Shown: piece after piece, positions 1 to 61,855 of the stretch
How positions within the stretch are numbered: the first letter of the stretch is position 1
Layout: every line of letters begins with the position of its first letter
DNA from: Schmidtea polychroa
Taxonomy: Eukaryota
Direction of reading: 5' to 3'
Length of the DNA: 64,000 nucleotides
NCBI GenBank assembly: GCA_044892525.1
Contig: CM097885.1
Span: forward strand, 21,268,001 to 21,332,000
Notes under the pieces: generated by a model
What the model saw: only the letters and a program-made list of their open reading frames with translations
Databases searched by the model: none
What the model was told of the DNA's origin: nothing
Program-made: the position numbers and the translations under genes

Positions 1-2287
1 AAATGTTTAGCAGCAACTTAGCTGGAGATGATTCTATATCAAAGTTTACTTCAAAAATATTTTTTAAAAATATTATTTCATCACATATTTCAGTTGAAAT
101 TTCTTTTGGATATTTTAAGTGCATATTTTTTGCTCTCGATTTTATTTCCTCATCTGATGAAGTTTGAAAAGTCCAAAGGAATCCAAAAGTCTGGCAAATT
201 TTGCGTAAAGACTCAAAGCGACGTGTCAAGCCTGAAATAACCGAATCAATAAAAAACATTATATAAAAAAACATTAATAAACATTAACTCTATAATGTTC
301 TTCAGCATCAAACTGTGACCTAATATGACGAGTTAATTGAAAATCAGTTGAAATTTTGGAAAGTACGGCAATCTCTTTTGAACTTAAGAGTAATCTGCCC
401 ACTCTCCACGCATTATCTTCATCCTTGCAATAAGATTGTTAACATTTTCCATTTCTACGTCAAGTGTTGCATTGCGTGCTTCAATAATTAAATTAGTTTG
501 TTGCAATAATGTTAATATTTCAAGCCATATTGTTGTCAACACAATGCATTCGAATGTATCCAAATATTGAAAAATTGACTGAAGTTCGGTACGTGCGTGC
601 GGTGGAAGGTTTAGTGACTTACACTCCTCTAAAGCAGCCAGAATATTTGACTGATTATTGTAAATTGGTTTAACAGCATCAATTCGAGCAGACCATCTTG
701 TCTTTGATATTGTGTGAAGTGACACAGCTAAATATTTCTTTAAAATCTCCCACTTTATAGGACTGCTGCTAAAAAAATTATACATCTGTTGAATTCTCCC
801 AAAATATGTAACTGCTTCTTTACATGATTCAGCAGAGTCAACTCCAACAAGATTAAGAGTATGATTTCCACAACTGGAAAAATGCAATTCGGATTACGCT
901 CAAGCAGCACAGCTTGCACACCGTTATACTGTCCTGCCATATTAGCACCATTATCATATGCTTGCCCAAAGCATAAATTAAAATCAAGGCCAAAATTTTC
1001 AAGAATTTCAATAATTCGTGTAGCGATTTCGATTCCTCTTTTTTGTGTAAATTCAAATGTAATAAATCTTTCCTCAATTGAATACGATGCATTATTTATT
1101 ATTTTTACATAACGAATTACAAGACACGTTTGTTTTTGGTGTGAGCAGTCTGGTGTCGCATCCACAATAATAGAAAAATATTTAGAATCAAGAATTTCTT
1201 CAATAATTTTTCTTTGCACAAATTTTCCACAAATCTGAATGAATTCATTTTGAATTCTTGATGATAAATAATGAACTTGAAGACGTTTGTGCTTGTCTTG
1301 TGACTCACGAACACTTTTTACATGTTCGTATAAAACTGGATCATACTTACTGAGCAATTCTATGATACCTAAAAACTTTCCATTCCGCGAATTTCCAATA
1401 TTCTCATTAGAACCAAATAATGCCAAACCACGCTCACTTAGGAAAAATATAACATCCAAAATTCTGTGAAGAACTTTCTGCCAATTACTTGACTCACAGT
1501 TTAGTTGTTTCAGTAGAGATGATCCTAATGACGACTTTAATAATGCAGATCTACTTGCTGATTTCCAATGGACATAATTTTTTTTATGAATAATTGAATT
1601 TTCATGTGCGGGTACGCGATCTTTCAATTTCCTCCATCCTCTTAAAATATCCCATCCTGATTGGCTACCGAGAACTGATGCATCAAATTTCGTATCTTGT
1701 AGGAAGCACGGAAAACAAAATAATGATTTTTTTGAATTGCTCCAGCATAGCCAATCTCTGTTGCAAATTTCTCCATTCGCTAAAACATTCTTCGTCAGAC
1801 GATATGGAAATTTATTGTTTTCAGCATCATTTGGGATGTTTTCAGGTATTTTAAAATGTTCAATTTTCAAAAAATCTTCTATTTGCATTATATTTTTCTT
1901 GTTAAGTAAGGCGACGTCATCGTTGAAAACAGGTATCGAAGTTGTTGCTTCAATTCCTTGAATATTGGGTAGATTAGATGACACGTAATTTTCTTCCATG
2001 TTTGTATCATCAACAATTATCTGTAATGGTGACAAAGAATCTTCTATTTGTTCTGAAGTTATATTTTCAACCACCGAAATTTGAGTATCAACATCAGCAA
2101 TAACATTTGCCATTTGTGAAATAGCATGAGTAGTTTCATTTTCAGGATTGACTGTTTGATGGATAATCTGTGCAGTGATATTTTTTTTATTAAAGAATTT
2201 CGTTAATCGTGGCAGACTTTGTTTGGCTTGTTCTTGTTCTTTTTTCTGTCGTCTCTTGCTTGCGCTACTCGGATATGTTCTTTTCAT
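1..2287 (-). pseudogene. ZMYM1-like hAT transposase, frameshifted
   Basis: 755..2287: RDWLCWSNSKKSLFCFPC (TTF-type Zn finger), YLSSRIQNE, FSIIVDATPD, GQAYDNGANMAG. 384..887 continues in another frame with CGNHTLNL and KTRWSAR. Further disrupted toward position 1. Confidence 0.9.
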
Positions 2288-2829
2288 TATATTCCTAAAA
2301 TTAATTACTTATGAATTAAATAGAACTATTTTTAATATTAACTCCATTTAAACTTACAGATTACAAATATCACTAAACAATAAAAAAATACTAATTTTAT
2401 AATCACTAAAATTTATAGTACGGAACTAAAAGCTATACTCAATAGGAAAATTAAAATTGTACTGAATAGGAAATATAGTTAAATTTTTAATAATTGAAAA
2501 TTAAATATTCTTTTTTATGCAATTGGCCTACTACGTTAAAATTTTTTGAATTTTTCAGAGTTCAACATATTCTTTTTTATGCAATTGGCCTACTACGTAA
2601 AAAAGTTTTATACATACATATAACAATAACTTGAAATTTTTACTATAACTTTTGTATCGTTATATTTTATAAATCTTTGGTTAAAATAAAATAAATTAAT
2701 ACTCAAAATAATATTTCAACTTAATTTTTCCGCACCTACTGTGACCAAATTAGGAAATAAATAGAGGCCCTTTCACAACTCGGGGCCTGAGCCAAATGGC
2801 CCTCATGGCCCACCCTCTGTTATGGCCTG
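1..2829 (-). mobile_element. hAT DNA transposon (ZMYM1/Tip100-like), 3' end runs off the window
   Basis: Transposase ORFs below. A GC-rich subterminal block at 2765-2829 ends in ...CTCTGTTATGGCCTG (rev. comp. CAGGCCATAACAGAGG, hAT-like terminus). Confidence 0.8.
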
Positions 2830-59677: not shown

Positions 59678-60749
59678 AAAATTTTTTAACTACTTTTAAT
59701 GGAAATTTTCAAAGTTTTTTACAGCTTTTAAAAATACCTTGAAAAATTTTTCTTATTATTTTATTATAATGATAGTGGTAATTGTAAGATTTTATCATTG
59801 TCCTTATACTCGAATAATTCATCGTCTTCTAGATAGTTTTTGTCTTTGAAATTAAGATACAAATCGCAATTAATTATACAAAAAGGGCTTTAGAAATTGA
59901 CTAATTTTGATTCTTTTGACTAATATTATCTATTTACAAAGCATCAACGCCGAGCGGAGAATCGGTCAAATGTAACTTTGATTATTGATTGTAAAGTGGT
60001 GAAAAAAGATTGTGAATTTTGTTATTTCAAAATACCATGTGTCGTTATTGTTTTGATTTAAAGGACACGAGGAGTCAGAGGTAACCGACTTAAATTAACC
60101 AAAAACCCAACATTATTATTATTATTATTATTATTATTATTATTATGGTAGTGATTGCAATTTCGATATTCATAAATATTACAGTAAATGAATGAAAGAT
60201 AACAATTAATATTTAACTTCACTGTTTGATGAAAATATTTGACACGAAATCTAGGTAAATGACAAATTTAATTTCAGTTTTTTTTGGTTAATTAACATAG
60301 ATAAGGAAACATTGCTATCAAATATACTCTTATTGACAAATTTATCTTAACATTCATAATTGGTATTTATTTAGATTATTAGTAAATTGATTAAAATTAA
60401 ATAAAAACAAAAAGAGATAAAAACCTTTTTGCTAGCGCTTTAAATCCACGAAGAACAAATGGTCCAACAGTCCGAACTGAATAGATCCCCGTTGATAAAT
60501 TCCGCAAATATGAAATAAAAATTTTAATAAACGAACGAATGCAAACTTTATATCTCTTGTTATATCGGTGATTTTTCCCGTTTCTTCAACCATGGTAACT
60601 TAATTTCAAATGGGTAGATTTTCGGTTGGATTATTTAAACCACATTTAAGGTCAAAAGTAGTTTAATAATATTAATTTTTTTATGAAATATTTCTGAATA
60701 TATTATATAAAAATAAATTTACAATTATAATAAATATGTACTTCATTTT

Positions 60750-61855
60750 AAAATGTTTTTCAAGGGAATTTTTCTTTCATCACAAAACTTTTCCAGTGTT
60801 TTAAATACGGTTTCTCCTTTTGTGCCTGTCTCTAAATTTCTAGCAAATAAAAGTTCTTAACATATTTTTTCATCTTTAATAAACCTCTCGTAAGACAACA
60901 ACAATGCTTTATTAGTTGGTACAGTGGAATCATCCAACTGAATTGAAAATTGATTAGTCTTCAGATGATTGTACAATGACTCTTCAATGTTTTCAGCCAT
61001 TTCATCAATTTTTCTTTGCACAGAACTATTGCTCAAAGAAATTTTTCGAATTATATCTGCCGCTGGTTTATGGAGCACAATAGTTATAACTTCTTTTATC
61101 GCCGGCAAAATTAATTTTTCTCCGATGGTGTGGTTTACCTGTTTCAGCAATTAACAGAGAGATATTGTATGAAGCTCAAAGTCCCTCATCGTCTTGCTTA
61201 GCAGCCATCGAAAAAAGTTTCAATACACTTGGCTGAACATTATGCTTCTTTTCCAGATCCTGAAAGTAGGCTACATTTTTGTCCTTTTTATCTGGATGCA
61301 TTTTATTCAAATGATCTTGAAGTCTTGAAGGCTTCATCGCTTCGTTTGAAAATGTTTTTGAACAAAGAAGACACAAAGGCAAAAATGAGTTTATCGAATT
61401 TTCTATAAATCCATATTTAATATATTCTGCACTGTATTGCCGTTTATTCTTTTTTACTTCCGACAAAATATGTAAATAAAGTGAACTTAAATACTTGTTT
61501 AAAGATAGTGCGCGAAACCACTAATGAAAATATAAGAAAAATTAAGAGCTTTTATATGGGATTTAAATACAGCAAGTACCGACAGGAATAAGACAAACAC
61601 GCACAAACTCGTTTATCTCTTTTGACGCTCAATCGTACTGAGCAAGTTAGGACAAGTATCGAAGAACCAGCGGATTGCGATCGGATTGCTCCAATAGCGT
61701 TATTTAACAGAAACTTGTTACAACTTGATTGCGTAGGGCGTGCGGGCTATCCTACGAAATCTATGTTAAGTATTTTAAGTTTTTATACCATCATACAGGG
61801 TAGAAATTGTCATCGGTTGCTTTGATAACGGTACCAGAGTGGTGTCGCTATAAAT
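60750..61855 (-). mobile_element. 5' fragment of SCAND3/ZBED8-like Buster hAT
   Basis: KRQYSAEYIKYGF..PLCLLC..SNEAMKPSRLQDHL; HTIGEKLILPA; ISLSNSSVQRKIDEMA; FSIQLDDST. Confidence 0.88.

Follow-up and report, generated by a model that had tools for sequence, protein, structure and literature searches.

A 62-kb block of minus-oriented transposable element relics in the planarian Schmidtea polychroa, a candidate one-strand piRNA source

A 64,000-nucleotide stretch of the planarian Schmidtea polychroa genome (GenBank assembly GCA_044892525.1, contig CM097885.1, positions 21,268,001 to 21,332,000; hereafter the window) contains a block of nested relics of transposable elements (TEs) that share one orientation. 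The block begins ~195 bases left of the window, at the 3′ long terminal repeat (LTR) end of a Ty3 element, and extends on the minus strand to 61,808, past a Buster-like hAT. Its orientation bias, which spans several classes of element, is real and sharply bounded. The best reading, which we hold with about even confidence, is that the block may be a plus-strand precursor of PIWI-interacting RNAs (piRNAs), working as a one-strand piRNA source. We prefer this reading because the genome is that of a planarian, a group whose piRNA clusters are nearly all one-stranded; in Schmidtea mediterranea, 268 of 270 clusters, covering 3.8 Mb, are reported to be unidirectional (PMC6824462). Positions below are those of the window, with negative values to its left.

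Orientation bias in the block, its flanks and the genomic background

Coding relics were located by tblastn with a library of natural TE open reading frames (ORFs) from 400 kb of flanks and from 15 randomly drawn 60-kb windows, under one rule set throughout. The assembly comprises 781 Mb, including four contigs of 272, 190, 145 and 93 Mb, and has a G+C content of ~30%. PolB and other Polinton genes were left out of the element counts because their strand varies by family. With window-derived queries included, 14 consecutive coding relics, from 387 to 61,454, all lie on the minus strand, and the first plus-strand coding element after this run is a Penelope-like fragment at 62,753. Queries from outside the window alone likewise place 11 of 11 elements left of 62 kb on the minus strand.

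Under the same library and rules the flanks are mixed (15 of 27 elements plus on the left and 11 of 30 on the right), as are the random windows, in which 48 of 102 elements are plus, the longest single-strand run is 4, and neighbouring elements lie on the same strand in 45 pairs and on different strands in 42. This comparison with flanks and background, which the first-pass annotation of the window had proposed, confines the bias to the block. At the sharp left edge, the first minus LTR end, at about -195, follows a plus Ty3 fragment that lies 1.6-2.0 kb outside the window, and both flanks are mixed in orientation right up to the block edges.

When window-derived queries are excluded, the minus strand holds 18,210 matched bases and the plus strand 105, so that 99.4% of the coding bases matched are minus. 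As one of the 15 random windows reaches a majority of 100% and another 95%, each ruled by a few large elements, the matched-base majority alone does not discriminate, and element counts are used instead. Among ORFs of at least 55 aa, Pfam gives 11 transposon or Polinton matches in 121 minus-strand ORFs and none in 133 plus-strand ORFs, which yield two weak unrelated matches.

Repeats are matched over ~71% of the block. Further LTR pieces that could be oriented through relatives (at 2.8, 13.3, 15.5, 32.4 and 51.2 kb) are all minus, as is each orientable LTR or Ty3 piece in 1-61,808; the strand of the putative transcript is deduced from this layout. Orientation is not assignable for the repeats at 26,636-27,962, 34,465-39,445, 38,954-39,533, 51,780-52,120, 59,922-60,139 and 62,146-62,337 and is doubtful for a non-coding repeat at 39,534-40,136, giving seven non-coding repeats without a confident orientation.

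Element content of the block

The elements of the block, and the fragment that marks its right edge, are as follows.

1-2829, minus: hAT (DUF4371, Tip100-like), 98% identical to sister copies, inside the Ty3 3′ end
2828-3647, resuming at 13,265-13,483, minus: LTR-family piece, oriented by two relatives
3646-7521, minus: Ty3 retrotransposon 3′ end, with an integrase-tail ORF and a 638-aa accessory ORF
7845-11,646, minus: Burro-type LTR with an LTR-encoded ORF (8237-8677), 75-89% identical to LTRs of full elements
12,445-14,804, minus: local duplicate of the Ty3 3′ end (12,520-13,254), an LTR piece and a diverged second copy of the accessory ORF (13,816-14,804)
15,367-17,317, minus: Spin-like hAT with terminal inverted repeats (TIRs) and a perfect 8-bp target duplication, containing a minus LTR-end fragment at ~15,532-15,641
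17,453-20,983, minus: LTR relic with two LTR-ORF pieces
21,290-22,636, minus: Polinton pPolB fragment and a minor-capsid-like ORF (weak match)
25,324-26,646, minus: Polinton packaging ATPase (Pox_A32) and protein X pieces
28,108-28,548, minus: fragment of an LTR-encoded ORF
29,174-29,768, minus: Polinton accessory-region piece, weakly oriented from the adjacent ORF in relatives
32,418-34,460, minus: LTR relic with an LTR-ORF remnant
35,153-37,499, plus: Tc1-family deletion derivative hosting the Merlin insertion, with ~45 bp left of a ~1-kb transposase ORF
35,246-36,633, minus: Merlin (IS1595-like) transposon, 95-98% identical to sisters
40,160-49,297, minus: Polinton relic with penton-like, protease-like, integrase, PLA2-like and major capsid genes, ~84% identical to relatives
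40,974-43,825, minus: young hAT-type transposon nested in the Polinton, with a perfect 8-bp target duplication and one in-frame stop
45,307-45,411, plus: Polinton ATPase remnant of 105 bp, the family's opposite-strand gene
51,206-51,280, minus: LTR-end motif, oriented like the LTRs at 7.9 and 17.5 kb, with a weaker copy at 54,993-55,061
52,196-54,696, minus: hAT (DUF4371), 87-97% identical to sisters
55,254-55,556, minus: lone hAT C-terminal dimerisation fragment
55,804-56,633, minus: third fragment of the Ty3 accessory ORF, with 3′ untranslated region
56,835-59,410, minus: Spin-like hAT, 91-97% identical to sisters
60,737-61,808, minus: 5′ part of a Buster-like hAT (zf-BED), the last minus element, 85-92% identical to sisters
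62,753-63,045, plus: Penelope-like GIY-YIG fragment, marking the right edge

The eight transposase relics reported by the first-pass annotation are present and all minus; six of the ORF 5′ ends that it gave are ATG codons, while those at 55538 and 61466 are not starts, the former belonging to the lone hAT C-terminal fragment. Its broader statement that all elements point the same way holds for the coding elements (14 of 14) but not for the Tc1 derivative or the 105-bp ATPase remnant. The latter is a second plus trace, within a Polinton relic whose family carries this gene on the opposite strand. The Polinton material represents two or three separate relics that differ in gene order.

The hAT-type transposon at 40,974-43,825 is 99-100% identical to 39 other copies among the matches listed. 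We tentatively take it to be hATm-like; an earlier label, Sola, was dropped on finding the 8-bp target duplication. The fragment at 55,254-55,556 is a separate insertion, as it lies upstream of the hAT at 52,196-54,696. A search for TIRs and target duplications on the hATs at 52.2, 56.8 and 60.7 kb gave no clean result.

Both plus-strand coding sequences in the block are largely deleted, the Polinton ATPase at 45,191-45,307 and the Tc1 transposase at 36,982-37,148. The two deletion junctions are absent from the other fetched copies, which is suggestive only, and we do not claim selective deletion of plus-strand coding sequence, as Tc1 copies in control stretches likewise keep little of their ORF. 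Separately, a conserved motif recurs at the ends of several LTR families, in one orientation in the window (7851-8050, 15,532-15,641, 17,500-17,666, 51,206-51,280 and 54,993-55,061), and the Burro-type LTR contains at 9397-9851 a 22-bp tandem array of ~16 copies with 43- and 51-bp higher-order units.

A Ty3 family with an accessory ORF

What the first-pass annotation called a novel element, with all coding copies minus, is on sequence grounds the 3′ end of an abundant Ty3 LTR retrotransposon family; the strand was correct, the novelty was not, and part of the material is a local duplicate (3646-4376 and 12,520-13,254, 98.9% identical). In sister copies the 638-aa ORF directly follows the integrase-tail ORF on the same strand. 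This ORF is 26% identical to an ORF that has an RNase_T match, and the accessory ORF, related to RNase_T (DEDDh) exonucleases, has at least 71 matches in the genome (69 of 2,532 candidates scored). In the window it occurs at 4220-6136 and 13,816-14,804, with a third fragment within 55,804-56,633. No match to a Ty3 reverse transcriptase (RT), RNase H or integrase core was found anywhere in the window.

The LTR piece at 2828-3647 and 13,265-13,483 is interrupted by a 9.6-kb segment between 730-bp direct repeats (98.9% identical). These repeats are Ty3 3′ region and not LTRs.

History of insertions

Identity to sister copies ranges from ~75-89% for LTRs and 79-84% for Polintons to 98% and 99-100% for the youngest hATs. 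Since the bias spans relics from ~75% to 99-100% identical to their sisters, it has persisted over time. Two hATs (15,367-17,317 and 40,974-43,825) keep their perfect 8-bp target duplications, which indicates that they transposed here separately. We infer that a single inversion or duplication cannot have produced the bias, which points instead to many separate insertions of differing age. The first-pass annotation assumed independent insertions; part of the Ty3 material is a local duplicate, and many elements lie within one another, with hATs inside the Ty3 and Polinton relics and an LTR end inside a hAT.

A putative plus-strand piRNA precursor and its alternatives

In the reading that we prefer, the 62-kb stretch of minus-oriented relics would be transcribed on the plus strand as a single long precursor, starting at most ~1.6 kb left of the window, in the interval from the plus Ty3 fragment to the first LTR end on the minus strand, and PIWI proteins would cut this precursor into antisense piRNAs. 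Cut-and-paste transposons whose ends are symmetric are expected to insert in either orientation, so the bias likely arises from retention after insertion. Antisense insertions may be retained because they would supply useful silencing guides, whereas sense insertions would supply no such guides or would cut the transcript short. Live hAT, Merlin, Ty3/Burro and Polinton families in other parts of the genome would be the targets of these guides. All eight coding DNA-transposon relics agree in strand, and DNA transposons are reported to be the least orientation-biased class in human genes (PMC1391917). Also in favour, Seed clusters of S. mediterranea are reported to be enriched in antisense LTR sequence (bioRxiv 10.64898/2026.01.28.702291).

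Several observations weigh against this reading. In comparison with the parent transposase, at 12 of 12 parent loci, the Tc1-family deletion derivative at ~35,153-37,499 is plus-oriented. At 62 kb, the block exceeds every single cluster in the published S. mediterranea table, the largest of which is ~49 kb (two same-strand neighbours there span 67 kb; PMC6824462 Table S2), and is far above the reported median of 1.9 kb among the 16,148 S. mediterranea clusters of a newer call set (bioRxiv 10.64898/2026.01.28.702291). That preprint reports hAT, Mariner and Polinton sequence to be mostly sense in type B clusters and not antisense in Seed clusters.

Two sequence footprints of transcription are also null. 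Private substitutions in six DNA-transposon relics (156 in total, a test of low power) show no strand asymmetry (A>G 14 vs T>C 22, p = 0.32; C>T 32 vs G>A 32). The hexamer AATAAA, with 137 occurrences in non-coding DNA, is not specifically lost on the plus strand (log2 ratio -0.21 vs -0.54 for control hexamers). The non-coding AT skew is -0.043, and random windows range from -0.156 to +0.062. The null footprint tests lend no help to the cluster reading or to a long-standing plus-strand transcript. As Seed-type precursors are reported to be poorly adenylated (bioRxiv 10.64898/2026.01.28.702291), these results count less against a precursor of that type than against an ordinary polyadenylated unit. 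Unstranded contigs from two sequencing runs that we presume to be RNA map to 43,900-59,900 (124 and 16 contigs, mostly at 90-99% identity). Their identity and concentration on the Polinton part indicate related copies, and the one joint among them is not GT-AG; as they carry no strand, they favour neither side. Two further runs presumed to be RNA, with almost no records, yielded no contigs there, and a search of sequencing runs with 17,500-27,400 listed no RNA run.

The last point against a piRNA source concerns the selection of the window, which was picked after the fact; the number of windows taken, 193, is only that of the windows with notes in this genome. In simulations at 7 elements per window, the observed density and the like-for-like case, a run of at least 11 appears in one of the 193 windows with a probability of 0.028, rising to 0.15 and 0.38 at 10 and 14 elements per window. 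The value of 1/128 given by the first-pass annotation ignores this choice, and ~0.03 is the corresponding like-for-like look-elsewhere figure. A chance same-strand run in a TE-rich intergenic gap would also fit the two null footprint tests and the one plus-oriented Tc1 relic. However, a run of 14 is simulated at only 0.000, 0.004 and 0.027 for the same three densities (p = 1.2e-4 taken on its own), background runs reach 4 at most, and the LTR pieces oriented later through relatives proved minus too. Counted as mutually unrelated groups, nine are minus (Tip100-like, Spin-like, Buster-like and hATm-like hATs, Merlin, the Ty3 family, two LTR families and Polinton) and one is plus (p = 0.021). Chance is thus disfavoured as the cause of the run, and we consider it unlikely.

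A different possibility is an ordinary long plus-strand unit, either a long non-coding RNA or an intron with non-coding or unrecognised exons, from which sense insertions that stop or mis-splice the transcript are removed, with no piRNAs made. Repeat orientation bias is reported to mark transcription generally (PMC1391917), Pfam scans are blind to non-coding exons, and a plus-strand gene nearby has a TE-filled intron of 40,282 bp with three minus and one plus library elements. That gene is the farther of two tandem plus-strand AMP-binding genes left of the window, ~56-60% identical to each other in several exons. The pair is presumably luciferase/4CL-like. The nearer gene is complete and stops ~22.5 kb before the window, with four plus-oriented relics between it and the block, and we set aside read-through from it on account of these relics. 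To the right of the window, the first gene that can be recognised lies 23-30 kb away, on the minus strand, and encodes Myb repeats.

Within the block, the first-pass annotation had named an intron of a plus-strand host gene as the explanation that would undo its proposal, and Pfam scans for a spanning gene found none. No host-gene family scores above the cut-off in 254 window ORFs of at least 55 aa, and 36 plus and 36 minus short window ORFs have no Pfam match, non-coding exons being invisible to both scans; the short-ORF scan covered 150 of 160 plus and 150 of 157 minus candidates across window and flanks (300 of 317). Exons of one protein-coding gene on both sides of the block were not found, within Pfam sensitivity. 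The distance to the nearest plus-strand gene, the short ORFs lacking Pfam matches and the undepleted AATAAA all argue against an ordinary transcript, which we regard as a rather improbable source of the bias.

Insertion mechanics or genome stability might produce the bias with no role for RNA, through a preferred nesting orientation combined with purging of related inverted pairs. Nesting is common here, and human nested insertions are reported to prefer one orientation up to 2.6-fold (PMC2836564). The random windows, however, lack concordance between neighbours, the Merlin element is opposite to its Tc1 host, and the agreement extends across nine mutually unrelated groups, so purging of inverted homologous pairs cannot explain it. 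We consider this explanation very unlikely.

Less credible still is minus-strand read-through from element promoters, giving sense, ping-pong-dependent piRNAs like those of planarian "Spread" clusters. The mostly sense hAT, Mariner and Polinton sequence of type B clusters would agree with it, and a minus-strand ORF at -18 to -17 kb, 17 kb left of the window, might have further exons far upstream; this ORF resembles a seven-transmembrane receptor by eye and has no Pfam match, so the label is provisional. Under such read-through there is no clear reason why insertions on the plus strand should be removed, and the preprint describes type B and C clusters as TE-depleted and genic. We judge it highly improbable.

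Returning to a plus-strand piRNA precursor, a more specific version is possible but doubtful: a 62-kb one-strand piRNA locus that would trap all classes and keep cut-and-paste DNA transposons and virus-like Polintons in antisense with the same strictness as LTR elements. If this were true, the locus would exceed every single published planarian cluster in size and would differ both from flamenco, with its Gypsy-only bias, and from the LTR-centred Seed clusters, and planarian clusters could be mapped from TE orientation alone.

Elements in the flanks and control stretches

Giant Ty3 elements in the flanks and control stretches encode gag, MATH, a viral fusion-glycoprotein domain, pol, ankyrin and BIR domains, and they match the Burro elements described from dugesiid planarians (PMC6431247). 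In these Burro-type elements the fusion-glycoprotein domain is of Monjiviricetes type and lies between gag and protease; a RING domain is also present. Elements that share a CpG-rich start motif carry stitched pieces of host genes (cofilin with a proteasome subunit; RING with ubiquitin), and one of them sits inside the 40-kb intron of the AMP-binding gene. Polinton copies in these stretches carry a small TBP-like ORF. Two plus-oriented hATs, one of them young and hATm-like, lie in an ~8.3-kb tandem duplication ~130-150 kb left of the window.

Comparison with known systems

The first-pass annotation had described the window as flamenco-like. The block does share nested TE relics and a strong single-strand orientation with flamenco and flam-like clusters, the latter reportedly found from a strand bias driven by Gypsy elements alone (PMC10643416). 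The likeness is loose, as Gypsy/Ty3 dominance is not seen in the block: matches to an RT, RNase H or integrase core are missing, and the bias is as strong among the hAT, Merlin and Polinton relics. The flamenco super-cluster is reported to span 495 kb (PMC10643416, PMC11615739), whereas the block covers 62 kb and abounds in relics of hAT, Merlin and Polinton elements and in solo LTRs.

The ROAST/FEAST repeat-orientation footprint of ordinary transcription units shares with the block an antisense repeat excess over a bounded interval, with DNA transposons reported as the least biased class (PMC1391917).

The closest counterparts are the Seed, or type A, clusters of planarians, which are likewise TE-rich and gene-poor with many antisense LTR pieces. 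Host genes are depleted in the block, where non-coding exons are possible, and its orientable LTR sequence is all on one strand, antisense to the putative plus transcript. Seed clusters are reported to yield dense, uniquely mapping PIWI-bound RNAs of 28-35 nt, from one strand and with a 5′ U bias, that match a long precursor. They are also reported to have a higher G+C content than random regions; that of the block is 29.8%, above 11 of the 15 random windows (26.5-37.2%). Seed clusters also carry H3K9me3 over the body and a narrow H3K4me3 peak at the 5′ end. The block differs in that its bias extends to DNA transposons and Polintons, and it is known here from sequence alone. The main targets of SMEDWI-2 are reported to be LTR elements and Polintons (PMC8532177), classes that are both present in the block.

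One-strand piRNA clusters are established in planarians, and a further candidate locus is no surprise. If confirmed, it would add antisense retention of DNA transposons and Polintons, undescribed for planarian Seed clusters in the literature examined (the preprint without its supplements). It already offers a bounded, testable target for work on the origin and promoters of clusters in a stem-cell model group.

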